DNA of 64,000 nt, from positions 26,278 to 90,277 of the forward strand of contig JAFGEQ010000002.1 of NCBI GenBank assembly GCA_016931515.1. The letters are read 5' to 3'. A model generated the notes under the pieces. It did not search any database. It was not told where the DNA came from and saw nothing but the letters and a program-made list of their open reading frames with translations. The translations under genes were made by a program, and so were the position numbers. Positions 2,898-46,917 of this stretch are shown piece by piece (within the stretch, counting starts at the first letter, position 1; every line of letters starts with the position of its first letter). The stretch comes from a candidate division CSSED10-310 bacterium. Its GTDB lineage: Bacteria; CSSED10-310.

Positions 2898-3609
2898 TCC
2901 ACTGCTTATTGAGATTGAGAACTTTTGCAGGAGCCGTGCGAACCCGATCAGGGCAGAACACTGTCAGAAGTATTTTAAGACAGGGCATGGTGAATATGGA
3001 TATGGTGACGTTTTCCTGGGTATCGAAGTACCGGTACTCAGGAAAACCGCATTACTTTTTTGGACCGTGCCATTGAGCACATCGGTTCGATTACTCCAAT
3101 CCATCTACCACGAAGAACGGATGCTGGCCCTGATGATATGGATCCGGCAATTCGAGAGGGGCACTTCCGATGTAAGGGATAGCCTTGTGGTAGCCTATCT
3201 CGATAATACCAGCCGGATTAACAACTGGGATCTCGTTGATATATCAGCTCATAAAATCCTCGGTGCTTATCTTCTCGAACACGATTCCGAATCCGGATTA
3301 CTTAAAAAACTCGCCGGATCAACCATTTTGTGGGAACGACGAATTGCAATGATTTCGACCTTGCGTTTCATCCAGGTCAACCGTCCGGAACCGGCGTTCC
3401 TGATCGCCGACCTGCTGTTGAATGATCCTGAAGATCTGATGCACAAAGCTGTAGGATGGATGCTTCGGGAGATCGGCAAACGGGATCAGGCATCCGAGCG
3501 TGCTTTTCTCGACTCCCGTTATAAAAATATGCCCCGTACTATGCTTCGATATGCCATCGAGCGATTCGATGAACCCCTTAGACAGCAATATCTTAAAGGA
3601 ATGATTTAA
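2890..3609 (+). CDS. DNA alkylation repair enzyme (AlkD-like HEAT-repeat DNA glycosylase family)
   Basis: 239 aa; N-terminal pattern (IEIENFCRSRANPIRAEHCQKYFKTGHGEYGYGDVFLGIEVPVLR) typical of the DNA_alkylation (AlkC/AlkD) family; 8-nt overlap with the gcvPB stop. Confidence 0.65.
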   Translation: MPDPLLIEIENFCRSRANPIRAEHCQKYFKTGHGEYGYGDVFLGIEVPVLRKTALLFWTVPLSTSVRLLQSIYHEERMLALMIWIRQFERGTSDVRDSLVVAYLDNTSRINNWDLVDISAHKILGAYLLEHDSESGLLKKLAGSTILWERRIAMISTLRFIQVNRPEPAFLIADLLLNDPEDLMHKAVGWMLREIGKRDQASERAFLDSRYKNMPRTMLRYAIERFDEPLRQQYLKGMI

Positions 3610-3611
3610 TC

Positions 3612-4757
3612 GTGCAGATCGTGACTGATCGTCTCCTGATCCGTCCCGCTGCCTTCGAGGATATCCATCGTATCGTTGAACTCTGGAACGACCCCCGAAT
3701 CACGACATTTGTCGGATTCCCTTTCGGGCTTCGAACGAATGCCGATATCGTGGCATCGCAGCTGGTTCCTCCACCGGAGCATCTGACTGATCGAATACTG
3801 GTCGTTATACACTACGAATCAGGGAAGATTATCGGGCAGGCCATGATGCACTCCCCGGATCAGAACGGTCTGAGTACTACGGATATCAAATTGAATCCGG
3901 ATCATCAGGGATTGCATTACGGCTCTGAGATAAAACGGGCGCTGTTGACCTACCTGTTTCACGAGACATCCTGTACGATTGTGGAAACCACACCCAATCT
4001 TGCGAATAGCGCCAGCATACATCTTCAGGAATCATGCGGAGCTATCCGGATCGGGCGGGGACGTTGGGAACCGAGCCATGATTCGTCTGCAGATTGTATT
4101 CCAGTGGATTATTGGATCTACCGGGTTTACAAACATTCAGCACCCTATCCTGATGTTCGTCATCGGCAATTTCAATACACAGCGATAATTCCCGTTGCCG
4201 GCAAATCTCAACGTATGAGGCAGTTCAAACCGTTACTGCCATGGCCCCCAAACCAGCAGAATGCATCTCGTTGTGTGATACAGTCTGCAATCAGCAGCCT
4301 GATGGAAGCAGGTATTGATCCTATCAGGGTTGCTGTTGGGACACGGGGAACAGAGATTAAAGGCAGGTTAAAAAATTGGCCGGTACAGATTGTTGAAGGA
4401 GCCTCTGGTACCAAGGCGATGAGTGATACAATAGTTAAAGTTCTGCCGTTAATCGATCCCGCTTCTGTTATCGTAATATTACCGGGCGATCATCCTGCTG
4501 TTGCACCGGAAACCATCCGTCGATTAGTCGGCTTCCATGAGGAAAATCCAGATCGGATCCATATTCCTTCCTTTGGAGGAAAATCCGGCCACCCGGCCTT
4601 TTTCCCGCCATCGGCTAATCAATTCATGGCCTGCTCGAACCGTAAAAATGGTCTCCGATCGGTAATCCACGATTCAAGCCTGGACGTTGTTTATCATGAG
4701 ATGGGAGATCCGGGCATCCTTAAAAACCTTGATTTACCCTCAGATTATTCAGTTTGA
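3612..4757 (+). CDS. Bifunctional fusion: N-terminal GNAT acetyltransferase (RimJ/RimL-like) and C-terminal MobA/MocA-like nucleotidyltransferase
   Basis: GTG start. The first ~170 aa show GNAT hallmarks (DRLLIRPAAFEDIHRIVELWNDP). The last ~190 aa carry the MobA/MocA N-terminal motif (AIIPVAGKSQRMRQFKPLLPW) and an ILPGDHP block. Confidence 0.6.
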   Translation: MQIVTDRLLIRPAAFEDIHRIVELWNDPRITTFVGFPFGLRTNADIVASQLVPPPEHLTDRILVVIHYESGKIIGQAMMHSPDQNGLSTTDIKLNPDHQGLHYGSEIKRALLTYLFHETSCTIVETTPNLANSASIHLQESCGAIRIGRGRWEPSHDSSADCIPVDYWIYRVYKHSAPYPDVRHRQFQYTAIIPVAGKSQRMRQFKPLLPWPPNQQNASRCVIQSAISSLMEAGIDPIRVAVGTRGTEIKGRLKNWPVQIVEGASGTKAMSDTIVKVLPLIDPASVIVILPGDHPAVAPETIRRLVGFHEENPDRIHIPSFGGKSGHPAFFPPSANQFMACSNRKNGLRSVIHDSSLDVVYHEMGDPGILKNLDLPSDYSV

Positions 4758-7536: not shown

Positions 7537-7719
7537 ATTGTAACAAAATGTTAGTCAAAGCCCAACCTCGTATTGCGGATTACAGGAGATCCCTTCGCTT
7601 AGATTCACTGATCCGGAAGTCTTGACTATTCGGCTATGAAGGGGTATTGATTGTACTCTGGTTTTCGTTGAAGTTGCCTTCAGGCAGACTGTACAACATG
7701 ACGAGAAAGGGGAGCAGAG

Positions 7720-9003
7720 ATGGTCAGTTCACACCGCATCCTCACGATTATGTCAATGATAATAATCATGATGTCATTGACAGCATGTGAAAACACGGAG
7801 AATCTTCGTAAAGGTATTCACCTTGAAAACACCGGTAATCATAAGGATGCCATTACTCATTACAAAGCATTTCTTGACCAGTATCCGGAAACTCAAAAGA
7901 AGCCGGCGGTGGAAGAAGCTATTGCGGAAGCTTACTTGAATTGGTCTGAAAACGAGAAGTCGTTAAAGCACTGGGAAGCTGGTGTGAATCTTATGCAGAT
8001 TGTTCTGGATGATTACAATGAAACCCGTGTCGCAGAAAAAGTTCAGGATGCTCTGCCGGAGTTTCTCCTTGAATGGTCAACGCAATTATCGACAAGCGGC
8101 CAGTTCCTGGATTCACTGACGATCCTTACTCGCCTGATCCGGCATTTCCCAGCTTCTGGGTATGCTGAAAAAGGCCGAAAATTGAGATCGGAAATCGGCA
8201 TATTCGCGTTTACATCAGATGAGAATATCTATGTTATGAATGCAGATGGCACCAAACTTAAAAAAGTTGCAAGTAATGCGATATCACCGACGATCTCTCC
8301 GGACGGTCAACGCATAGCGTACATCGAACTTGCGAAATCCGGCCAGCGTCAAGGCTATCTCTGCCTGGCAAATATCGATGGTCGCAAAGCCAAACGACTC
8401 CTCGAAAACCCGACGGCTTCCGACCCGGTTTTCTCACCCGATGGAACCAATATACTTATTTCGAAGGATAATGCTTTCCAAAAAGTAGATCTGACGGGTA
8501 GAACTATCAATGCTTATTTCGGTATCCGTGATTTCGATACAATCGGCAGTTTCAATCCGACAGGCAAACAGGTCGTCGCATTCCTGAAAAAGCCTCAAAA
8601 AAATGTCTCGCGACTATGTGTTACTGAAGATTTTGAGGAATATTTCGAATTGTATTCGACGGAGAATCCGATCCGGGATGCAGCATGGTCGAAGGACAAT
8701 CTTAGAATAGTTTTCATAACCAGCCGCGGGATCCACTCAATTTCACCTGAAGGCGGCGAAGTTACGGACCTTATGAACAGTGCGGATCATGACAATATCG
8801 ATATCAGGGCAGTTGATATCTCCCCAACCGGAGCAAACATTATCTTTCTCGGAAAAAAAGACAGCGATTTACACTATAAAATGTATTATATGACACTGGC
8901 CAGAGAAGTCGCAGAGTTACCATACGAAGCACCGGAAGGTCTGGAAAAACCGTTCCCGACCGGAAATAGCATTTCTTGGAGCTACGGTTACCTTCGCTAT
9001 TGA
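7720..9003 (+). CDS. Lipoprotein with N-terminal TPR-like region and TolB-like beta-propeller (PD40) repeats
   Basis: Signal peptide plus lipobox (MSLTAC); repeated SPDG/ FSPDG motifs (SPDGQRIAYIE, FSPDGTNILIS) typical of TolB/PD40 propellers. Confidence 0.55.
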   Translation: MVSSHRILTIMSMIIIMMSLTACENTENLRKGIHLENTGNHKDAITHYKAFLDQYPETQKKPAVEEAIAEAYLNWSENEKSLKHWEAGVNLMQIVLDDYNETRVAEKVQDALPEFLLEWSTQLSTSGQFLDSLTILTRLIRHFPASGYAEKGRKLRSEIGIFAFTSDENIYVMNADGTKLKKVASNAISPTISPDGQRIAYIELAKSGQRQGYLCLANIDGRKAKRLLENPTASDPVFSPDGTNILISKDNAFQKVDLTGRTINAYFGIRDFDTIGSFNPTGKQVVAFLKKPQKNVSRLCVTEDFEEYFELYSTENPIRDAAWSKDNLRIVFITSRGIHSISPEGGEVTDLMNSADHDNIDIRAVDISPTGANIIFLGKKDSDLHYKMYYMTLAREVAELPYEAPEGLEKPFPTGNSISWSYGYLRY

Positions 9004-36725: not shown

Positions 36726-39700
36726 TTGGATTATCAGGCAAATCCAAACCAAAGGGATAACACGATGCATTTACCAAAAGAGTTACACGAAACCTACTCA
36801 ATTAGTGACGATCTGGGTGAAGATAGTCTGGGTAAATTATTAAGAGTAAAAAATAAAAGCAACGACACCATGCATCTCATGCGACTGATGCGAATATCAG
36901 GAAATGACCGGTTATTATCAGCTGAAATGAATTCCGACCTGGCACTATGGGCTGATCTCCATTATCATAGTGTCTCGTTTATCCGGGAGTTCTTGGATAT
37001 AAATGATTCTCACATTGCAGTAATTATGGATAACCGCCCCGGCATCAGACTAAGCACGGTGTGGAATGACATGCTACGCAAGGTTTCTGATGCAGATACA
37101 TTTATTCAAGAAATCGGTTCCGGGATTGAGTACATGCATCTGAATGGCATACGGCATTTATTCGTAAACCCGGACACGATACTTATCGACACAAGGGACG
37201 GCTCACGAGCTTTCTATCTGACCGATTGCGGACTGCTTGAGTTTCTTGAATGGACCACCCGATTTAATCTTCCAAAACCTGATGATTTTCCGGCTCTTGA
37301 ATTCATGAGCCCTGAGTTTGTTTCAGGGGAGCGATCAGATCTCAGAAGCGATCTCTACTCGTTCGGTACGGTCATATATCAACTTCTCACTGGTATCAAT
37401 CCGTTTCAATCAGACACTGCTACAGCAACAATTTCGGCTCATCTGAACCGGTTGATTAACCAACCCAAAGATTTAAACAGCGAAATCTCCGATAAATTGA
37501 ATATGTCAGTCATGAAGCTTCTCGAGAAAAACCCCGGATATCGACCCAGTAGTCTGATTAAGCATTTCGGTATTACATTTGAATCTGATGACTCTCAGGA
37601 AGTGCATTATTCCCTCTTGAATTCCTATTCTATTGATCATCCGCTTCCATTACAGGAGATCCGTTCAGCATTCGAAAAAGCATGCAATGGATCAGGGAGT
37701 GTTCTGGTGCTTGTTGGCGATACCGGGATCGGAAAAAGTCGTCTGCTGGAGGGAGTTGAATCTGAATTTCGGCTTTCAGGCGTAAACCCGATAATTATAC
37801 AGGCTTTCCCCAATTCGGATACTGAATGCGGATGCGGTGTCCTACGATCCGTTTTCAAAGCATTACACCATTTTTATCCAAAGCTGGAACCGGACGTCAT
37901 CGATCAGATGTATCCTCCTGATTTTGAAAAAAACTATCTTCAAATCTCAGATGCACTCTTTCAAGAGGCTGTTTTGCAGAGCTGTGCCAGACATATTTTG
38001 AAAGCTATTTTCGACAGGATTCAAGGAGATCAAGCGGTTCCTTGTGTTGTGATTCTCAAAGACTGCTTTTTCTCGGACAGTATTTTCTGGGGGTTTTTCC
38101 GCACGCTGGCACGACTGTTATCTGAGAAGGCCATTGGAAATGTTCCTTGTCTTTGGCTTGTCGAGACCCGGGATATTGAATCCGGTTTCATTAGAGTAAA
38201 AGGCAATGACGCCATTAAGCCGATTGAACTGGTTACATGTAATCGAGAAACCGTAATTAAAATCCTGGCTTCAGGTTTTGGTTTGGAATCAGTTCCAGAG
38301 ATGTTGACTGATTGGGTGATGGAGTTATCTGAAGGGAATTTCCAGACCATTGATCAGATGATAACAATGCTGCGTTACACCGGCATCCTTTCCCTGAAAG
38401 ATGATATCTATACAATAAACGATAATACATGGCATACGGTAAGAACTCATTGCAAAGATCTGAATCAGTTTACAGATTATGTAATCGATCATTACATGAC
38501 TCCTCCCATGCGTCTCGTTCTGACCCATTTATCTTTATGGCCGCATGGATGCTCACTGATCAATTTATCCCTGACAATGGACCTGGACACCTCAACCCGT
38601 AAGTTTTTTCATTGGTTGCTTTTTTCCGAATGGGTACGGAAGACAAGAGTGGAAGGGTCGTTCATCTACAAGATTCGATATCCTGTTCTACAGGAACGAT
38701 TTCTCAGAGCAACACCCGATTACCAGAAATCCAGATGGCATCAACGAATTGCCGATCAACTGTGTGACCGGCAGGGAGCTCTATCAACCATAGTCGCTGA
38801 GCATTATTTCAGCGCCGATAATCGTCTCCATGGATGCGAACATGCTTTGTCGGCTGCGATGCATTATCGTGACCGGCAATGTCTGGAAAAATCCCGGTTC
38901 TGGTTCACACGGATCCTTGAGAGCATGCCCGAGCGCAATCGAACTAAAATAACCCAGATAAGCTTTGAATATGCCAAGGTCTTGATAGCCGACAAGGACT
39001 TTTCCAAAGCACACGTGACGCTGTCTCAGGCGGAATCATTCCTCGAGTCACGATTCCATCATAAACGCGACAAAGCAGATTACCTCCTCCTTCGCGGCAT
39101 ATGCAGCTTCCATCTTGAAGATAACAATCAGGCTGTTTCATTCTTACTGGATGCTCTGAAAATGTTACCTCGAACAACTGCTCATGAATACCGGCTGAAG
39201 ATTCTTTTCTTTTTGGCACAAATTTGCGAAAAACTAAATGATTTTGAAGGACTTATCGTCCATTTCACAAATCTTCAGAAGTTACTTCCGCTGCGGAATT
39301 ATCCTTTTTTCGCAGGTCGACTTTTGGGTATTGTTGAACGGGCGTACCAGGAACTGCAGCAATACACAACCGCAGAATTTTACTTGAAAGAATCGATTCT
39401 TTTCGGCGAAACCACTGGTGATCATATATTTTTGTTAAACCAAAACCTTCGTTTGGGCCAGATTTATGAGCGGACAGGAAAATATCGTCTGGCAAGTGAA
39501 TCTTACGACCGCGTGATAAGACTGAGTAGAAAATACGTTCATTCTCGGTTGTTATGTGATGGCTTATGCCATCTGGCCAATCTGCACATGCTGTACAGTC
39601 AACAGGAACTTGCCCAAGGATTGCTGGCTGAAGCACTTCAATTATCTGAGAAGCTAAATGAACAACGTCTCTATGTCTGGAGCAGCTTTTTGCTATCCTC

Positions 39701-41861
39701 CGTTTTTATTCAGAAGGGTTTGCTTGATGAAGCGAATAGTATTCTGAGTGCTTTGATACCGGGAACCCTTGTTGGAATCGAGATAACGCTGATAGGAAGA
39801 ATCTACCTGAACAAAGCTAGAATTGCAGAACGCAGGGGACAATTTTACCTGATGCTTCAACTGTTCACTGAGCTATTGAGTCAAGTACGGATCCAGAATC
39901 AAAGAATACTTACAGCTTTTTCACACCTGTATATCGCTCGCGTACACACACTTCTTGAGCAGTTGCCGCAAGCAAAATCAGCACTCGGCGAAGCCCGGAA
40001 AATTTTAGATAACTCTGACCTGTCTATTCCGGACTGCAACATCCTCGAAGCCACTATATATCTCATGCAGCACAATCCGAAAAAAGCCAGGAAATTGGCT
40101 ATGGAAGCCATAGATCAATCGAAAGAGAAGAACCTCATTCATCAACAGGCGGAAGCATCTCGGGTTTTGGGATTAATTGACCAGGCGGAAAATAATCAGG
40201 AAGGTGCGATCCTTCATTTTCAGACTGCACTGGCTTATTTTATATCTGATCAGGAGGAGTTTGAAGCGGCTCATATTCACCGTTTATTAGCGAAGGCTTA
40301 TTCTTTTTTATCCAAGCATGACCTTGCGAAGCAGGAAGACCAAGCTGCAGATGCCTTATTCAAAAAGTTATCTGCTTTCTACTATCTATCCGGTGATGCT
40401 GGTACGGAAAGCCCTCGACAAGAGAACGAACATCCGGATGTTATTGCTTCAATTTCTTCCGGCCTAGTCGTTCATCTCCTTCAATCCCTGTATTCGTTTG
40501 AAGCAGCTTGCAGTGCGATTCTTCATATCGTCTTACAGAGCGGTGGTTTTGATCAGGGCGCTGTCTTTCAGACCGGAAGCGGATCTGCCAATCTGTCTTT
40601 GATCGCTGACATATCAATGACAGCAGATGATCAGAAAACAGCACAAAAGCTTTGTAAAGCATGGATTCAAGAGTGTAACACTATACTGCCGGTATGTCGG
40701 ATGGAAGACAGTGCTTTGTTTCCGGATCAAGCTTCCGTGACGCAGGTGTGTTACTTGCCTGTTTTGATGGATAAATCTCTCGTGGCCATCATGTTTCTGA
40801 CGAGCAGGGATCCGATTCTTAAAAAGCGAGTTCGCTTATTCTCGGAACTTATTTCTATCGCATTCGAGATTATTCGAGACTTGGAAACAGCTCATATCAA
40901 TATAGATCACGAGGTGCCGGAGTCCAGAGTTCATTCATCAAAGCTGGTCGCAGAATCTGCTGAGATGAGCAGGATTAAAGTGGCACTTTATTCAATCGCA
41001 GCCTCCAAACTGCCTGTGCTGATCACAGGAGAAAGTGGTACTGGAAAGTCATTTCTTGCAGAATATATTCATAGGATAGCTTATCAAGGCAGGACAGCAC
41101 CAGCAGTAATTCAATGCAGTACGCTCAATTCTTCTTCCAAATCACAGGCACTTACCAGTGTGATAGATGGCATGCTTGCGACGGGATTTTCGACAACAAT
41201 AACCAGTAAAACCGTTATCATTGAAGATATTGATTTATTATCCTTAACGCAGCAGATGGAGCTGATTCCTATCTTACAACCCGATAGACGATATCCACTG
41301 CTACAGACAAATTTGCGATTTATTTTCACTACTGCCTGCAACATCAGGCAGTCCGTCCAGGAGAGCTCATTTTCCGAAGAGCTTTATCGACTGATCGCGG
41401 AAATTCAACTTAAAATGCCGAATCTTGCGAGCCGAAAAGAGGATATTCCTCAATTAGCCAGGGTATTCTTAGAAGAAGCCGTCGAATTAACACATAAAAA
41501 GTTTACATATTTTCATCCCGACACCCTGGATGCGTTGATGTCATATCCGTGGCCGGCTAATGTGATCGAGTTAAAGCATGCCCTTGAGACGGCGGTGCTT
41601 TTTGGTACACCTCCGGAGATCCATGTTCGGGATTTACCCAAAGAGATTCGATCTTACCTTGAGCGAGCTGGCATAATGGGTATTGATACACCGGTTTTGC
41701 GAAGTATTGAAGATATTGAAGAAGCGCACATTCGATCGATTCTTCATGGCACAAAGGGCAACAAGTTGCGAGCTTGCGAATTACTGGGAATTTCCAGACC
41801 CACGCTGGATCGAAAACTAGAAAAATTTGGCATCATCATTTCGAAAAAAAGGAAACGCTGA
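36726..41861 (+). CDS. Giant multi-domain regulator: degenerate Ser/Thr-kinase-like domain, P-loop (STAND/AAA-like) NTPase, TPR-like repeats, GAF-like domain, sigma-54-interaction AAA+ domain and C-terminal Fis-type HTH
   Basis: 1711 aa. The track start is a TTG; an alternative ATG lies 13 codons in. Kinase-fold motifs in residues ~20-285: catalytic loop IRHLFVNPDTILID, DCG in place of DFG, MSPE in place of APE, subdomain IX SDLYSFGTVIYQLLTG. P-loop VLVLVGDTGIGKSRLLEGV at ~aa 326. Sigma-54 AAA+ domain from ~aa 1400: Walker A GESGTGKS, second region of homology RFIFTT, SRKEDIP, WPANVIELKHALE. C-terminal HTH LRACELLGISRPTLDRKLEKFGI. Confidence 0.8.
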   Translation: MDYQANPNQRDNTMHLPKELHETYSISDDLGEDSLGKLLRVKNKSNDTMHLMRLMRISGNDRLLSAEMNSDLALWADLHYHSVSFIREFLDINDSHIAVIMDNRPGIRLSTVWNDMLRKVSDADTFIQEIGSGIEYMHLNGIRHLFVNPDTILIDTRDGSRAFYLTDCGLLEFLEWTTRFNLPKPDDFPALEFMSPEFVSGERSDLRSDLYSFGTVIYQLLTGINPFQSDTATATISAHLNRLINQPKDLNSEISDKLNMSVMKLLEKNPGYRPSSLIKHFGITFESDDSQEVHYSLLNSYSIDHPLPLQEIRSAFEKACNGSGSVLVLVGDTGIGKSRLLEGVESEFRLSGVNPIIIQAFPNSDTECGCGVLRSVFKALHHFYPKLEPDVIDQMYPPDFEKNYLQISDALFQEAVLQSCARHILKAIFDRIQGDQAVPCVVILKDCFFSDSIFWGFFRTLARLLSEKAIGNVPCLWLVETRDIESGFIRVKGNDAIKPIELVTCNRETVIKILASGFGLESVPEMLTDWVMELSEGNFQTIDQMITMLRYTGILSLKDDIYTINDNTWHTVRTHCKDLNQFTDYVIDHYMTPPMRLVLTHLSLWPHGCSLINLSLTMDLDTSTRKFFHWLLFSEWVRKTRVEGSFIYKIRYPVLQERFLRATPDYQKSRWHQRIADQLCDRQGALSTIVAEHYFSADNRLHGCEHALSAAMHYRDRQCLEKSRFWFTRILESMPERNRTKITQISFEYAKVLIADKDFSKAHVTLSQAESFLESRFHHKRDKADYLLLRGICSFHLEDNNQAVSFLLDALKMLPRTTAHEYRLKILFFLAQICEKLNDFEGLIVHFTNLQKLLPLRNYPFFAGRLLGIVERAYQELQQYTTAEFYLKESILFGETTGDHIFLLNQNLRLGQIYERTGKYRLASESYDRVIRLSRKYVHSRLLCDGLCHLANLHMLYSQQELAQGLLAEALQLSEKLNEQRLYVWSSFLLSSVFIQKGLLDEANSILSALIPGTLVGIEITLIGRIYLNKARIAERRGQFYLMLQLFTELLSQVRIQNQRILTAFSHLYIARVHTLLEQLPQAKSALGEARKILDNSDLSIPDCNILEATIYLMQHNPKKARKLAMEAIDQSKEKNLIHQQAEASRVLGLIDQAENNQEGAILHFQTALAYFISDQEEFEAAHIHRLLAKAYSFLSKHDLAKQEDQAADALFKKLSAFYYLSGDAGTESPRQENEHPDVIASISSGLVVHLLQSLYSFEAACSAILHIVLQSGGFDQGAVFQTGSGSANLSLIADISMTADDQKTAQKLCKAWIQECNTILPVCRMEDSALFPDQASVTQVCYLPVLMDKSLVAIMFLTSRDPILKKRVRLFSELISIAFEIIRDLETAHINIDHEVPESRVHSSKLVAESAEMSRIKVALYSIAASKLPVLITGESGTGKSFLAEYIHRIAYQGRTAPAVIQCSTLNSSSKSQALTSVIDGMLATGFSTTITSKTVIIEDIDLLSLTQQMELIPILQPDRRYPLLQTNLRFIFTTACNIRQSVQESSFSEELYRLIAEIQLKMPNLASRKEDIPQLARVFLEEAVELTHKKFTYFHPDTLDALMSYPWPANVIELKHALETAVLFGTPPEIHVRDLPKEIRSYLERAGIMGIDTPVLRSIEDIEEAHIRSILHGTKGNKLRACELLGISRPTLDRKLEKFGIIISKKRKR

Positions 41862-41936: not shown

Positions 41937-42776
41937 ATGAAAGTCACAGCATATGGGGCAACCGATTTGGGGATGCGGCGACCTGTTAATGAGGACAGTT
42001 TCCGGCTTTGTCCTGCTGTCCAGCTTTTCCTTGTGGCAGATGGGATGGGAGGCCACGCTGCTGGTCATGTGGCAAGCCGTATGGCGGTGAACGAAGTTGC
42101 GGAATTTATTGAATCGCACCTTTTGGGTGGAACTGATGATCGGGACGATGATTCGGATTATACTCAAATTCTAGTTGAGGCACTTCAAGCTGCCAATCAG
42201 TATATTATTACCGCAACACATCACCGAAAAGATCTCCGGGGAATGGGAACAACTCTAGTTGTAGTCTTGATTCGAGGAAGAAAACTATATGCTGCCAGTG
42301 TCGGAGACAGCCGGCTGTATTTAATTCGCCAGGAAGAAGTGAAACTGCTCACAACCGATCACTCGTGGGTTAATATGCAGGTGCAACTGGGCAATATGAC
42401 GTCGGAGGAATCACGGCTTCACCCGATGAGAAATGTAATCACTCGAGCGTTGGGAACACAATTACAGGTAGAAGTCGATACTCTTGTTCAGTTGCTCGAG
42501 GCGGGTGACTGCTTGGTTATGTGTACCGATGGTTTAAGCAATATGTTGAGTGATAAAGAGATTGCACTGAGTGTACTTCATCATGAGACTGATTTGAAGC
42601 AAGCAGTGGAAGAATTAATCCAACGTGCAAACATGCGGGGTGGGGATGACAATATCACCACTGTCGTTTTGAAAATCCAGGATGATATTGAATCCAATGA
42701 GCATTACGCTCAAGATACTGAAGTTATGTTTATACGTCCTATCAAACCCGGGAAAAACTCAACGGAACAGGATTGA
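41937..42776 (+). CDS. PP2C-family Ser/Thr protein phosphatase (Stp1/PrpC-like)
   Basis: Track ORF 41922..42776 with the likely ATG at ~41937 (MKVTAYGATDLGMRRPVNEDSF); metal-binding motifs LVADGMGGHAAG and DGLSNMLSD, and a DDNITTVV-like C-terminal block. Confidence 0.8.
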   Translation: MKVTAYGATDLGMRRPVNEDSFRLCPAVQLFLVADGMGGHAAGHVASRMAVNEVAEFIESHLLGGTDDRDDDSDYTQILVEALQAANQYIITATHHRKDLRGMGTTLVVVLIRGRKLYAASVGDSRLYLIRQEEVKLLTTDHSWVNMQVQLGNMTSEESRLHPMRNVITRALGTQLQVEVDTLVQLLEAGDCLVMCTDGLSNMLSDKEIALSVLHHETDLKQAVEELIQRANMRGGDDNITTVVLKIQDDIESNEHYAQDTEVMFIRPIKPGKNSTEQD

Positions 42777-43720
42777 TAATGATACGTTACCTTGTCACCG
42801 GAGCTGCCGGATTTATCGGTTCGCATCTGGTTGAATCACTTCTGACTTTACCGAATACCGAAATTATTGCGATTGATAATCTTATCACGGGCAATCTGAA
42901 CAATTTGAAACATCTGTTAAATCGCATTCATTTCATTCAAGACGATATCACCCATCCGGATGTTTTAAAGGAACTGATGGAGAACATTGATTTCGTCCTG
43001 CATCAGGCAGCTCTTCCATCCGTTCCACGATCCATTTCAGATCCTGATGCATGTAACAGACATAACATTACCGGAACTTTGCAAGTATTAATCGCAGCTC
43101 GTGATGCCAGGGTCAAGCGAGTCATATTTGCGTCATCTTCATCAGTCTATGGCTCAGATATCACTCTGCCTAAGCATGAATCGCTACCAACAATTCCCAA
43201 ATCACCCTATGCGTTAACAAAACTAACTGGAGAGCATTACTGCAGAATCTTTTATGAAGCCTATGGGCTTGAAACTGTTGCATTACGTTACTTCAATGTC
43301 TTTGGACCTCGGCAAAATGTGGCCTCGCAGTATTCCGCCGTCATCCCTCAGTTTATTTCGCATTTGCTTGCCGGAACTCCACCGGAAATCCATGGAGATG
43401 GAACACAATCTCGCGATTTCACATATATATCGAATATTGTTATGGCGAATCTGCAGGCGTGTACGGCGCCCGGGATAGCTGGCCAGGTGTTCAATGTCGG
43501 TTGTGGTTCGCATATTTCAATCAATGATCTTTATTCGATTATTGCCGATGAGATTGGCTCAGATCTGGAACCAATATATACACCACCCAGGATCGGAGAC
43601 GTCCGACATTCCTGCGCGGATATTACGAAAGCCCGCAATTTGATTGGATATGATCCAAGCGTAAGTGTTCGTGAAGGCTTGGCAATAACTGTCGATCATT
43701 ATGCAAACGTGTTCCGATAA
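42773..43720 (+). CDS. NAD-dependent epimerase/dehydratase (UDP-hexose or UDP-GlcNAc 4-epimerase, WbpP/Gne-like)
   Basis: 315 aa; Rossmann motif VTGAAGFIGSHLVESLL; catalytic YxxxK (YALTK); ATGA overlap with the PP2C stop. Confidence 0.75.
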   Translation: MIMIRYLVTGAAGFIGSHLVESLLTLPNTEIIAIDNLITGNLNNLKHLLNRIHFIQDDITHPDVLKELMENIDFVLHQAALPSVPRSISDPDACNRHNITGTLQVLIAARDARVKRVIFASSSSVYGSDITLPKHESLPTIPKSPYALTKLTGEHYCRIFYEAYGLETVALRYFNVFGPRQNVASQYSAVIPQFISHLLAGTPPEIHGDGTQSRDFTYISNIVMANLQACTAPGIAGQVFNVGCGSHISINDLYSIIADEIGSDLEPIYTPPRIGDVRHSCADITKARNLIGYDPSVSVREGLAITVDHYANVFR

Positions 43721-43725
43721 AGAGA

Positions 43726-45984
43726 ATGAGATCGAACTATCGATTTTTATATTTTGCTCCCTTACTGATCTGCATAATATTCAATGGATGCAGTGTCGAT
43801 CAGAGTGGGCAGGAAACGCAACCTGCGATTCGAGATTTAGTGGAGTCTTTTGATCCGTCCTGGTTGAACAGTGACCGGGAACGTTTTGTTTTCCACGATT
43901 TTCTGAATAAAAAACACCATTTGGGCAGCGGTTGGGAATTCGACGAAAACCAGGCCGAAACGCGTTTCCCCTGGCCTAGATTCACAATGGCCAGTGGCAT
44001 AATAGTATTGGATTGGAATCACCGAATGGAGCGTCGAATTACATTAAAACTGCTCAACATTGCATCAGATTACCCACCAGATATCATCGGCTTAAGCGTT
44101 AATGGCCAGGCTGTTCCTCTTATGGAAGATCACCTGCCATGCGGTGAATATGAGTTTTATGTTCCCTCATCCGTCCAAAAAACCGGGATCAATGAACTTC
44201 ATGTCAGTTTGAATCGTGACCGACTACCGCCTGATTTTGATATTCATTCGATTGGTTTGCACTCCATTCGTATTACGCTGGGAGCGGTTGTAAGAAATTC
44301 GATTCAAATAGGTGACCAAGTTCGAAGCAGTTTGCTTTTTGCTCCTCCGGTTGGGTTACGAATTCCCTATCAATCTGCCAAAAAACAGAATTTGCAATTC
44401 AGTTATGGATTATTCTCCTCTAACGAAAACAAGAACAAGTTTGTCTACTCATTAGAAGTGGCAATTTTTGAAAAAAATGGAGATCGTCCCGTTCTCGAAA
44501 GACGATTCCCTATCATTCGCAATCAGGAAACTTGTAGCAATTGGCAATTTGTAAAACAAAAGCTGCCCGTTATGGCAGATCAGGGAATACTGGAAATTAC
44601 ATTCTCTGCCGACGAGGAAATTACCGGACCAATCGATTATCTGGCACTCAGTGAAATTCTCATCGTTCCTGCGAATCAGAAAGGGGATCATGATACCAAT
44701 CTGATTCAACCCGATATCATATTGACAACACTCTCATCCGTGGCAGCCAGACAGTTAGGATCTTACGGTAACGCTTGTGCCAGAACACCGTTTTTAGATC
44801 GTTTTTCCCAACATGGATTAATTTTTATCGACGTCACATCAGCAAGCAACGGCGAAGTTCCCTCATTGTTATCAATTGCGACTGGAAAGTTGCCTCGCGA
44901 TCATGGCGCTTACCGAACTAATTCAATTACGAAGGATTTTCCATATATATTTGGAGATTTATTGACTGAGACGGATTATCAAAGTCACGCATTCGCGTTT
45001 ACAAATTCCGCAACCCAATCTGTTCTCTCTCGTCTTCCCGGTTTTAAACGCGTGTATTTCTCAAATCCCTCAAAGGATAGTCTGCAGAGCATCCGCGCGC
45101 AGTTAAACAGCATGCTGACATCACCCCACATCATTGCCCAACCTGGTTTTTTCTGGTTTCATTTCGCTCCCGAGACAGTCACCCCTGGGATGATAGATGG
45201 CATGTTCGACCTGACTGTATATAATAAAAACCATTTGCCAATCTCCGATCTGAATATTCCTCTCTCAGAGCAGGATCGTTTGTTCTCTCTTTCCCAAAAA
45301 ATTAACGCCAATGGGGATGTTCGTTCCCTATTAGGAAGCAACGACTATCGGTTGACGAATCTCGACAAAACTGTTTCGTCGGTTGTTCGTGACATAATAG
45401 ACCAACGATCATCAAGAGATGTCTCTATGATTGTTACGTCGGACAGCGGGATCATTCGAAGCTTGAATTCGAACGTTCTATCGAATGATTCTCTATCCCA
45501 GGAAGTTCTCCATGTCCCGTTAATCTGGAACGAGATCAGGAGCAATTCAGATCAGACTGAATACAGAAAGGGGATTGTCTCAACGGCCATAAGTAATCTG
45601 AAAATTTGTGAAATGATGGGGAAGCTCATGCGCAATGGTGATCTTAAAAGCATTTCTTGGAATGGATCTCCAGGATCAACAATCCGACCCATAATCGCCG
45701 AACATGATACACGTCCAATAATTGCATATCGAAAAGAGGAATTTAAGATGATTCACTGCTTGTCAAACCCATATTATCAAATCGCAACCACAAACCTGTT
45801 CAATCTGGATACCGACCCGGGAGAATCCATCAATTTAGCCGGGAGAGACCCTGAGTATACACAGCAATTTCTTGATCCTGTGTTGGCATTCTGCCGTGGA
45901 AGTTCTTTCTATCCGAGCCCACGAATGGGTTTGGAAGAAGAAACTCAAGCTATTCTGCAATCACTTAAATACACCGTCCAATGA
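43726..45984 (+). CDS. Lipoprotein with C-terminal sulfatase-like (alkaline-phosphatase superfamily) domain lacking the canonical CxPxR catalytic motif
   Basis: 752 aa; signal peptide and lipobox (FNGC). The region DIILTTLSSVAARQLGSYGNACARTPFLDRFSQHGLIF...GEVPSLLSIATGKLPRDHG aligns to the sulfatase N-terminal metal-binding and CxPSR...GRYP region, but the Cys/Ser and Arg are replaced. Confidence 0.45.
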   Translation: MRSNYRFLYFAPLLICIIFNGCSVDQSGQETQPAIRDLVESFDPSWLNSDRERFVFHDFLNKKHHLGSGWEFDENQAETRFPWPRFTMASGIIVLDWNHRMERRITLKLLNIASDYPPDIIGLSVNGQAVPLMEDHLPCGEYEFYVPSSVQKTGINELHVSLNRDRLPPDFDIHSIGLHSIRITLGAVVRNSIQIGDQVRSSLLFAPPVGLRIPYQSAKKQNLQFSYGLFSSNENKNKFVYSLEVAIFEKNGDRPVLERRFPIIRNQETCSNWQFVKQKLPVMADQGILEITFSADEEITGPIDYLALSEILIVPANQKGDHDTNLIQPDIILTTLSSVAARQLGSYGNACARTPFLDRFSQHGLIFIDVTSASNGEVPSLLSIATGKLPRDHGAYRTNSITKDFPYIFGDLLTETDYQSHAFAFTNSATQSVLSRLPGFKRVYFSNPSKDSLQSIRAQLNSMLTSPHIIAQPGFFWFHFAPETVTPGMIDGMFDLTVYNKNHLPISDLNIPLSEQDRLFSLSQKINANGDVRSLLGSNDYRLTNLDKTVSSVVRDIIDQRSSRDVSMIVTSDSGIIRSLNSNVLSNDSLSQEVLHVPLIWNEIRSNSDQTEYRKGIVSTAISNLKICEMMGKLMRNGDLKSISWNGSPGSTIRPIIAEHDTRPIIAYRKEEFKMIHCLSNPYYQIATTNLFNLDTDPGESINLAGRDPEYTQQFLDPVLAFCRGSSFYPSPRMGLEEETQAILQSLKYTVQ

Positions 45985-46147
45985 AATGCGGGGAAGATTC
46001 GGATAAAATGGACAGGAGAATGAGCAGGAACAGACAACTTAGAACCCTGAAATGGATAATAGGGTTACGTTCGAGAGACAGGGACTTTTCGTTTCACGAA
46101 GTCGGAATTAAAAAGACATCGCTGAAAGAAGATCAGGAAATTCTGCC

Positions 46148-46426
46148 ATGCACGACCAATTAACTGTAACTCAAGTCGGGTTTGTTTTTTTGTGTTTTTC
46201 GATAATCGCTTTTACAGCGTATATGAGGATTCTAATGTATCTCAACGCATTGGATGCCGGATTGGAAAATCCACCTGAAAGACCACACATGGGAGAAAAG
46301 CTACAGGCGTATAAAGCTTTCTGTGCGGAACGTGGGCGAAGACCCGTATTACTTTATATTTTCGCTGTTGGTGCGATCGGGGCGGTAATTTTCTGGCTGC
46401 CACTTCCGTGGTTGCTACTTCGATAA
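46148..46426 (+). CDS. Small two-TM membrane protein (hypothetical)
   Basis: 92 aa with two hydrophobic helices; ends 6 nt before the FHA gene start, so co-transcription is plausible. Confidence 0.3.
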   Translation: MHDQLTVTQVGFVFLCFSIIAFTAYMRILMYLNALDAGLENPPERPHMGEKLQAYKAFCAERGRRPVLLYIFAVGAIGAVIFWLPLPWLLLR

Positions 46427-46431
46427 AAATA

Positions 46432-46902
46432 ATGAATTTATCAGAAAAAGGCACACCGGTTCTTGAAGTTTACGATAGAGATACTCTGCTCGCTCGCATC
46501 CCGTTCATTCAGAAAGGCAAAAACTATCGCCTGGGAAGAGATCCATCGAATGATCTTGTGATTAGTCACGAACAGGTATCGCGATTTCATCTGTCGATAT
46601 ATCGCGGTTGGGATGATGTTCTTACGATCAGGGACACGGGTAGCCGGAATGGAGTCATTTTGAATGGGAAGCGTGTCTCCGGCCCATTTGAAGTCAGATC
46701 TGACGATGACATCCGGATTGGTCAATTAAAATGCTTGATAAAAGGAATCAAAACAAACCCGATACATTGTTTGCAGGAAAATGCCCTTCATTCATCAGAA
46801 AAGTCAGACAGAATCCCGTATTGTAAAAATCCTATTATATTATTAATCATAAGTGGCTTGTTTTTGGTCTCAACCATTGTGTTGATTGTGTCGTTAATCT
46901 AG
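46432..46902 (+). CDS. FHA-domain protein with C-terminal transmembrane anchor
   Basis: Track ORF 46408..46902 (GTG) with an ATG at ~46432. FHA core YRLGRDPSNDLVISHEQVSRFHLSIY...RDTGSRNGVILNGKRV; C-terminal helix ILLIISGLFLVSTIVLIVSLI. Confidence 0.7.
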   Translation: MNLSEKGTPVLEVYDRDTLLARIPFIQKGKNYRLGRDPSNDLVISHEQVSRFHLSIYRGWDDVLTIRDTGSRNGVILNGKRVSGPFEVRSDDDIRIGQLKCLIKGIKTNPIHCLQENALHSSEKSDRIPYCKNPIILLIISGLFLVSTIVLIVSLI

Positions 46903-46917
46903 CCTTTATCAGCTGGA

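Follow-up and report, generated by a model that had tools for sequence, protein, structure and literature searches.

What is a gene for an FHA-domain protein doing end to end with the gene for a T3SS (type III secretion system) export gate? This question is raised by a 64,000-nucleotide stretch of contig JAFGEQ010000002.1 from the metagenome-assembled genome of a candidate division CSSED10-310 bacterium, a member of a rare, uncultured phylum (PMC8248873); we refer to this whole stretch as the window, and coordinates are positions within it unless a locus is named. The gene (46432..46902, plus strand) encodes a 156 amino acid protein with an FHA domain and a predicted C-terminal membrane anchor, and it converges on sctV, which specifies a non-flagellar type of export gate. 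Pairing of such a gene with sctV is tight and recurs in two phyla. On balance, and with moderate confidence, we favor the explanation that its product is an FHA module tethered to the membrane on its cytoplasmic side, dedicated to a deep-branching non-flagellar T3SS (NF-T3SS) and working like the cytoplasmic half of the inner-ring protein SctD; the protein is probably a reduced counterpart of SctD with a cytoplasmic part only.

Two genes rather than one occupy the segment 46148–46902, lying in different frames. The upstream one (46148..46426, plus strand) has its own frame and stop codon, encodes a 92 amino acid protein and ends 5 nt before the FHA gene, which runs from an ATG at 46432 to a stop codon at 46900–46902. 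A preliminary description of this DNA had treated the whole segment as a single FHA gene and so placed its start at 46148, which is wrong; the FHA open reading frame (ORF) with one C-terminal transmembrane (TM) helix that it described does exist, the core it quoted (RLGRDPSNDLVISHEQVSRFHL...RNGVILNG) lies within that frame, and the close convergence on sctV is as it stated. The deposited record for the product of 46432–46902 (MBN1878540.1, 'FHA domain-containing protein', candidate division CSSED10-310) matches the 156-residue call. A single gene broken by a frameshift was considered and ruled out, because relatives keep both parts as separate, conserved genes (of 92 and 149–156 codons), and the split is thus not an artefact. 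We note also a 60-codon ORF at 45981–46163 (plus strand), annotated as coding in Logan contig L081, which overlaps both the stop of the preceding sulfatase gene and the start of the 92-residue gene; it is probably not a gene, being absent or only 30 codons long in relatives.

Only 15 nt (46903..46917) separate the stop of the FHA gene from that of sctV (46918..48984, minus strand). A terminator scan of this gap gave no terminator-like site, with scores near background, and each transcript probably runs antisense into the opposite gene, so that mutual transcriptional interference of the two genes is possible. A scan for sigma-70 promoters was likewise near background and gave no clear promoter for the FHA gene, and matches to the sigma-54 promoter consensus (19 observed, 28 expected) give no signal.

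The FHA assignment itself is confirmed, with a Pfam FHA (PF00498) score of 62.4 bits against a gathering cut-off of 20.7 and full coverage of profile positions 1–67; the related clan member Yop-YscD_cpl also scores above its cut-off (48.2 against 33.2 bits). An AlphaFold2 model built from 42 input sequences (mean pLDDT 83) places, in order, a beta-sandwich of the eleven-stranded FHA type at residues 10–104 (46459..46743; pLDDT above 90, and recovered as an FHA fold by Foldseek and alignments), a short helix, a disordered stretch at residues 117–129, and a TM helix at residues 134–155 with pLDDT of about 97, in agreement with the hydropathy plot, which puts the segment at about residues 131–156 (46822..46899). 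In the model the linker between domain and helix, a short helix plus some 13 disordered residues, comes to roughly 25–30 residues. Since the linker runs into a TM helix with which the chain terminates, the FHA domain must, on this model, lie on the cytoplasmic side at the membrane surface, with no material for a periplasmic ring; as modelled, the protein is tail-anchored and has no periplasmic domain.

How far does this arrangement extend? A word-indexed homolog search with the single FHA protein returned nothing beyond itself; the orthologs came from HMMER, run exhaustively against 1.84 billion representatives, and from the profile search that followed. The former yielded four full-length proteins of the same layout, P0125 (156 residues, 43% identity), P0126 (178 residues), P0132 (149 residues) and P0210 (151 residues), and the latter two more, P0273 and P0274. 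The family so defined has seven members, including that of the window, all between 149 and 178 residues in length, and it is tiny and well delimited, as after the six relatives the next score falls from 181 to 69 bits. All of these orthologs have the TM segment at the C terminus and lack a periplasmic domain, and none of the relatives has a longer SctD-like ortholog, the existence of which had been raised as a possibility.

In all six lineages for which genomic context is available (the window, L087, L088, L089, to which L090 and L091 are identical, L092 and L093) the FHA gene converges on sctV, with gaps of 6–18 nt. The plus-strand genes upstream of it are arranged as in the window in L087, L088 and L089, and the minus-strand string is also kept in L088 and L089; this block of sctV, a chaperone gene, a gene for a 204 amino acid protein and sctU ends at sctU, beyond which the genes differ from those of the window. 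Three lineages have the entire block, from the gene for a large protein with a kinase-like domain through to sctU. Within the block the proteins diverge at very different rates. The best conserved is a PP2C phosphatase encoded upstream of the FHA gene (67–81% identity to that of the window), and the corresponding values are 71–72% for the chaperone (in L088 and L089), 62–63% for SctV, 45–46% for SctU, 36–40% for a large protein with a kinase-like domain, and 31–41% for the FHA protein. The FHA gene is thus the fastest evolving of the block, and its length, architecture and position are kept.

The 92-residue protein accompanies it closely. It has no family match in Pfam or NCBIfam, hydropathy shows two hydrophobic segments, and it is exactly 92 residues long in L087, L088 and L089, with 59–68% identity; the 3′ end of its gene is present in L092 also. 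Wherever a relative has context, its gene precedes the FHA gene by 3–6 nt, and it is better conserved than the FHA protein. Its loop (ALDAGxENPP.R.H.G.KL.AY) carries many positive charges and not a single Ser or Thr.

A second and more distant instance of the pairing is found in the myxobacteria. The SctV of the window is of the non-flagellar type (688 residues; PF00771, 692 bits), scoring 689.6 bits with the hrcV model TIGR01399 against 616.6 bits with FlhA; a neighbor-joining tree places it on the non-flagellar side and, by distance, nearest to the SctV proteins of the Cystobacterineae. Among the matches listed, which are from species-representative genomes, the nearest is that of Archangium, with 47% identity, and the group that holds these nearest proteins is the NF-T3SS that Abby and Rocha call 'Myxo' (PMC3459982). 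In each of six myxobacterial loci examined (Archangium L001 and L033, Myxococcus L082, Melittangium L084, a Myxococcales metagenome-assembled genome, L085, and a metagenome contig, L096) sctV faces a convergent gene for a protein in which a pair of FHA domains is followed by a linker, acidic and proline-rich, and by a C-terminal TM segment; five of these loci have gaps of 3–67 nt, and L001, with a doubtful ORF in between, has one of 636 nt. This family is large, with 864 matches at E ≤ 1e-5, which the sources name merely 'FHA domain-containing protein', and in 120 of 121 listed, mostly myxobacterial proteins the TM segment lies within about eight residues of the C terminus (115 by a strict automated count and five on inspection; the exception is a probable fragment of 293 residues). 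When the flanks (about 10 kb) of 78 other sctV or flhA loci were searched with the FHA-domain hidden Markov model, there was not a single FHA ORF. The link with the export gate drawn in the preliminary description is borne out by these comparisons: orthologs located away from T3SS genes were looked for, and the genes lie beside sctV in all six lineages of the family and all six myxobacterial loci.

The myxobacterial clusters are more complete than the window and show what company the FHA gene keeps. Upstream of sctQ there is a gene with HEAT repeats, followed by small ORFs of SctI-like or needle-like character and by genes for SctJ, a FliG-like protein of 483 residues, SctL, SctN, SctO and SctP; downstream of it are genes for FliO, SctR, SctS, SctT, SctU, an FlhB-C paralog, chaperones and SctV, and on the convergent side follow the FHA gene and a TPR gene, then a small ORF of beta-barrel-like character, and lastly an RDD gene. 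Over the whole stretch bounded by the HEAT-repeat and RDD genes we found no other SctD-like gene, whether with an SctD periplasmic domain or a further FHA domain. We also considered that SctD might be split, with its periplasmic piece encoded upstream of sctJ, and rejected this, the small ORFs there being without TM segments and SctI-like or needle-like. The SctD model TIGR02500 gives 32–36 bits with the myxobacterial FHA proteins against a cut-off of 86, matching at model positions 3–55 only.

These observations bear on a system of known function. The T3SS of Myxococcus xanthus (T3SS*) is needleless and secretin-less and is needed for prey lysis (PMC10433427, PMC12075869), and MXAN_2445 is its sctQ (PMC10196010). 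Counting genes from MXAN_2445, the HEAT-repeat gene is MXAN_2434 and the FHA gene is about MXAN_2458, inside the published MXAN_2434–2464; gene order thus suggests that the published 'SctD' of T3SS* is the tail-anchored FHA protein.

We note two further features of these clusters. A protein with a FliG_C domain, 480–580 residues long (33.9 bits against a cut-off of 23.3), is encoded between sctJ and sctL in L098 (4901–6349, plus strand), L096, L099 and L104, and the SctQ of these Myxo-type T3SS* clusters is a FliM and FliN fusion; Myxo-type systems have been stated to lack FliG (PMC3459982). A FliG-like linker might replace the SctD–SctK connection in T3SS*. Secondly, the 'needleless' clusters encode Gly/Ala-rich proteins of 176–220 residues, at 1242–1781 and 3438–3965 (plus strand) of L098 and at 7557–8198 (minus strand) of L082, whose end helices, for example ...NSVSNIR and ...LKDTLKTQV, recall the C termini of the needle and inner-rod families; the two L098 ORFs have no Pfam match.

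Does the FHA domain of the window protein have the features of one that reads phosphothreonine? The canonical phosphothreonine-contact motifs are present as G35-R36, S50-R51-F52-H53 and S71-R72-N73-G74, and the GR, SxxH and NG residues are invariant both in a five-member family alignment and in an alignment with 41 myxobacterial proteins; they are retained even though overall identity within the family is just 31–44%. On these residues, phosphothreonine reading by the protein is plausible.

Among solved structures the best sequence match of the window protein is 3GQS, the FHA domain of Chlamydia trachomatis CT664 (E 6.9e-9, the runner-up being at 5e-4); with the family profile 3GQS is again first (E 6.9e-15, 58 bits), followed by EmbR (47 bits). 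The model agrees: 3GQS heads the Foldseek ranking (E 2.6e-9, target TM-score 0.87, root-mean-square deviation 1.6 Å, 30% identity), and the phosphothreonine-binding FHA domains of OdhI, GarA and EmbR come after it. There are 140 Foldseek matches in the PDB at E ≤ 0.001, and the best 50 of the 140 are all FHA-fold domains; the sole other T3SS entry among the best 50 is 4D9V, which we take to be the cytoplasmic domain of YscD, at rank 49. A structural comparison with the FHA domains of YscD and CdsD had been proposed at the outset, and the closest match is to the latter. CT664 has been described as homologous to YscD, and the corresponding protein of C. pneumoniae as CdsD, with FHA domains that PknD phosphorylates (PMC3162421, PMC2765968); we note that the gene is numbered Cpn0172 in the first of these reports and Cpn0712 in the second. 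In the sequence alignment CT664 has GS at the site of the canonical GR in the window protein.

We therefore have a small protein with conserved position, anchor and contact residues, and the role that we propose for it is as follows. The FHA domain would dock a Thr-phosphorylated partner at the export apparatus, candidates being a component of the apparatus itself or of the sorting platform, or a regulator, and docking would control assembly or substrate loading. The neighboring PP2C phosphatase would erase the phospho-mark, and a kinase acting in trans would write it; we place the kinase in trans because the neighboring kinase-like domain appears catalytically dead, as described below. The 92-residue membrane protein encoded directly upstream would be the likely membrane partner of the tail anchor.

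Several observations weigh against this explanation, and they are best considered together with the alternatives that they bring to mind. The first concern the genes with which the FHA gene shares a strand. These form a string, with overlaps or gaps of no more than 60 nt, that encodes in order a 1711-residue protein, the PP2C, an epimerase, a sulfatase-family lipoprotein, the 92-residue protein and the FHA protein. The PP2C (PPM) Ser/Thr phosphatase (41937..42776, plus strand; 279 residues; PF13672, PF00481) can be aligned over its full length with tPphA (166 bits), Stp1 and PstP; the metal-binding motifs line up, and by these features it is intact. The NAD-dependent epimerase (42779..43720, plus strand) and the sulfatase-family protein (43726..45984, plus strand; 752 residues), both identified by Pfam and the latter with a lipoprotein-like N terminus, lie between the PP2C and the 92-residue gene, an order shared by L087, L088 and L089, and they point to envelope chemistry, not secretion. 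In addition, the CSSED10-310 lineages are fairly close to one another, with SctV 60–66% identical among the six, so that synteny may be partly inherited rather than selected.

It can thus be argued that the protein is a generic PP2C/FHA reader of envelope signals, serving the epimerase and sulfatase or envelope synthesis in the manner of actinobacterial FhaA, FhaB and PstP, and that it stands beside sctV merely by inheritance; the tight same-strand string, relatives close enough for passive synteny, and a best NCBIfam match to FhaB/FipA (NF049868, 44.6 bits) all speak for this. That score, however, is far under the 125-bit cut-off of the model, and in FhaB/FipA the TM segment precedes the FHA domain. 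Moreover, synteny is lost directly past sctU, whereas the junction of the FHA gene with sctV is kept at 6–18 nt, and an independently diverged tail-anchored FHA protein occupies the same convergent site beside the nearest SctV homologs in another phylum, without the PP2C, epimerase and sulfatase genes; the 78 other sctV and flhA loci, with no nearby FHA ORF among them, likewise argue against this alternative. We therefore regard this alternative as unlikely.

As to the PP2C, we note a further occurrence close to sctV. In a Polyangiaceae metagenome-assembled genome (L018:3724–4503, minus strand) a PP2C 38% identical to that of the window is encoded some 1.3 kb from sctV; no FHA ORF was found at this locus.

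The cross-phylum comparison has its own weaknesses, which also count against our explanation. The window and myxobacterial FHA proteins are 31% identical and match at 46–55 bits, the level of FHA domains in general, and more than 150 other FHA proteins outscore the myxobacterial ones (these being whole-protein scores, mostly sums over two to seven repeats). The best PDB match of the myxobacterial protein is GarA, with 3GQS only eleventh, so that the CSSED10-310 family alone shows the affinity to CdsD. The case for orthology between the phyla consequently rests on architecture and position; a loss of sequence signal is to be expected for the fastest-evolving gene of the block, but the resemblance could reflect convergence. 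A profile–profile comparison of our alignments A3 and A2 is invalid as evidence, since A2 contains the window protein.

The secretion genes of the window are also few. Upstream of sctV on the minus strand, and in order of distance from it, are a gene for an LcrH/SycD-like TPR chaperone (48990..49496; 168 residues; TIGR02552 at 76.3 bits against a cut-off of 104.8, with TPR matches in Pfam), the gene for the 204-residue protein (49524..50138), which has no assigned family, and sctU, the export switch (50257..51336; 359 residues; PF01312, 321 bits), whose product scores 301 bits with the SctU model and 293 bits with FlhB, both under their cut-offs. The chaperone has its best match among the loci in the one encoded upstream of sctV in Archangium L001, and TPR/LcrH-like chaperone genes between sctU and sctV are common to the window and the myxobacterial clusters. 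No sctC, sctJ, sctN, sctQ, sctR, sctS or sctT was found, nor any type VI secretion system (T6SS) gene, among the ORFs of at least 150 codons that were scanned, a set that leaves out about 12.4–25.5 kb of the window and could miss sctS (about 88 codons).

The 204-residue protein gave no Pfam or NCBIfam matches. Its counterparts in L088 and L089 share 53–54% identity with it and have a C-terminal helix that is nearly invariant (...MFELAVKIADIQHQAAMSAIRGIKY), and on this sequence it may be a secretion substrate of the needle, rod or translocator kind. Its middle part is Ser/Gly-rich, and its C terminus is weakly like those of small proteins of myxobacterial T3SS clusters, at a marginal 8.4 bits; among these are the products of three tandem 72-codon genes in Melittangium L084 (16577–17744). 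Between its gene and sctU, in a gap of 118 nt, lies a perfect 12 of 12 match to a sigma-70-like promoter (TTGACA-16-TATAAT, 50236–50209, minus strand), and an 11 of 12 match lies upstream of sctU (51369–51341, minus strand); the promoter count of the region is near background.

So short a list of secretion genes, comprising only sctU, sctV, the chaperone and a gene without a family among the ORFs scanned, would be expected if the FHA gene were a truncated sctD decaying beside the leftovers of a dead system, and myxobacterial systems have earlier been called relics (PMC3459982). We consider this very improbable. Every ORF is intact and of conserved length in at least four diverged lineages, the tail anchor is kept throughout the family and, with one exception, in the 121 mostly myxobacterial proteins checked, and the myxobacterial T3SS* works in prey lysis (PMC10433427, PMC12075869).

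The remaining difficulty concerns the kinase. The plus-strand string opens with the gene for the 1711-residue protein (36726..41861), in which Pfam recognizes a kinase fold (Pkinase, 74 bits), AAA_16 (STAND), TPR, sigma-54-type AAA+ and HTH_8 domains. In an alignment with titin kinase the catalytic Asp is replaced by Phe, the catalytic Asn by Thr and the VAIK Lys by Arg, and the domain is predicted to be a pseudokinase; it is degenerate in the orthologs as well, which keep a length of about 1700 residues at the 36–40% identity given above. The GAFTGA motif was not found in its AAA+ domain, so that the protein is seemingly degenerate both as a kinase and as a sigma-54 activator, yet it is conserved. 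Judged by these substitutions the locus has no evident writer of a phospho-mark, and the lack of an active kinase gene counts against the explanation that we prefer. The preliminary description was correct that a PP2C gene and a kinase-like sigma-54-activator gene lie on the strand of the FHA gene within 10 kb; of the phospho-control that it proposed, the reader and the phosphatase hold up, making such control plausible, and the neighboring kinase does not.

The same observation lends itself to another interpretation, namely that the protein is a purely structural equivalent of SctD, in which the FHA fold, like that of MxiG, PrgH and YscD, would do no more than offer the sorting platform a docking surface and would not recognize phosphothreonine, while the PP2C would act on other targets. 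Its place in the gene order is that of the sole SctD-like gene in the myxobacterial T3SS* clusters, in keeping with this interpretation. In YscD and PrgH the canonical phosphothreonine residues are partly lost. The SctD FHA fold of well-studied injectisomes does not bind phosphothreonine, several canonical residues being lost in MxiG and the key Arg in the second FHA domain of CdsD (PMC3162421). The GR, SxxH and NG residues are however invariant in the family studied here, where CT664 has GS; the predicted fold ranks with phosphothreonine-binding OdhI, GarA and EmbR, well above 4D9V; and an SctD ring is impossible without the periplasmic domain. A purely structural role thus seems to us quite improbable. 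That the protein might be a minimal SctD-like component had been suggested beforehand, and this stands as far as the CT664/CdsD match and the lack of any other SctD-like gene in the myxobacterial clusters are concerned, although the periplasmic ring domain is absent.

What would a dedicated FHA module of this kind mean? It is already known that SctD proteins have FHA folds, that CdsD is linked to a kinase, and that FHA and PP2C proteins control T6SSs. A cytoplasm-only, tail-anchored protein with a canonical FHA domain as a conserved partner of sctV in basal NF-T3SSs appears undescribed, as does the PP2C-linked form with a single FHA domain in CSSED10-310, a phylum to which Myxo-like non-flagellar T3SS genes are hereby extended. 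The protein bears on the origin of SctD and the purpose of its cytoplasmic FHA fold in the evolution of injectisomes; phosphothreonine binding has disappeared from this fold in the model pathogens, and kinase control is hinted at only by the chlamydial CdsD. One scenario, which we offer as speculation and hold to be rather doubtful, is that the most basal NF-T3SSs (T3SS* and that of CSSED10-310) use a ringless, phosphothreonine-reading 'half SctD', and that canonical SctD arose later by fusion with a periplasmic ring module as secretin and needle were recruited; ancestral export would then have been gated by Ser/Thr phosphorylation, a control that CdsD kept in part and that later disappeared from YscD, PrgH and MxiG. 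The T3SS* of M. xanthus is experimentally tractable and the FHA gene is apparently its sole SctD-like gene, so that it can now be asked whether a needleless T3SS lacks the outer inner-membrane ring, and whether Thr phosphorylation controls type III export, or the way in which the machine is recruited to sites of prey contact.

The protein can be compared with several known systems. It shares with SctD (YscD, PrgH, MxiG, EscD) an N-terminal cytoplasmic FHA fold, a single TM segment and a T3SS gene neighborhood. Unlike SctD it ends at the TM segment, without periplasmic ring-building domains, and for this reason it would be unable to form a 24-mer outer inner-membrane ring or to contact a secretin; because the defining feature of SctD is absent, we have not filed it as such. 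The SctD model TIGR02500 gives no match at E ≤ 0.01 with the window protein, P0125 or P0210. The phosphothreonine residues that MxiG has partly lost (PMC3162421) are, in addition, kept.

The combination of a canonical FHA reader and a PP2C eraser beside a membrane machine recalls both the Fha1/TagH, PpkA and PppA proteins of T6SSs and the mycobacterial FhaA/FhaB, PstP and PknB set. The proteins themselves differ. TagH is soluble, not tail-anchored, and its model (TIGR03354) has no match to the window protein and reaches only 33 bits against a cut-off of 120 with P0210; FhaB/FipA is the best NCBIfam match, yet well below its cut-off as noted, and the TM segment of FhaB/FipA is N-terminal to the FHA domain, the reverse of the order seen here.

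CdsD, about 830 residues long, contains two FHA domains, and its periplasmic C-terminal part is like that of YscD. The CT664 FHA domain is the best solved-structure match of the window protein by both sequence and fold, and both belong to deep-branching T3SSs with Ser/Thr-signalling genes nearby (PMC2765968). The differences are that CT664 has GS where the window protein has GR, that cdsD is not beside cdsV in the Chlamydiae loci examined, and that CdsD is phosphorylated by PknD whereas an active kinase gene is absent from the locus described here.

With the FHA protein of T3SS* there is a correspondence of architecture and position. The myxobacterial protein has two FHA domains and an acidic proline-rich linker of 350–380 residues, as compared with one FHA domain in a total of 156 residues, and its gene is co-transcribed with a TPR gene and not with PP2C and 92-residue protein genes. 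In both, however, a cytoplasmic FHA region is followed by a disordered linker and a TM segment at the extreme C terminus, and in both the gene stands convergent beside sctV, the SctV of the window being nearest, among those listed, to the SctV proteins of the Cystobacterineae.

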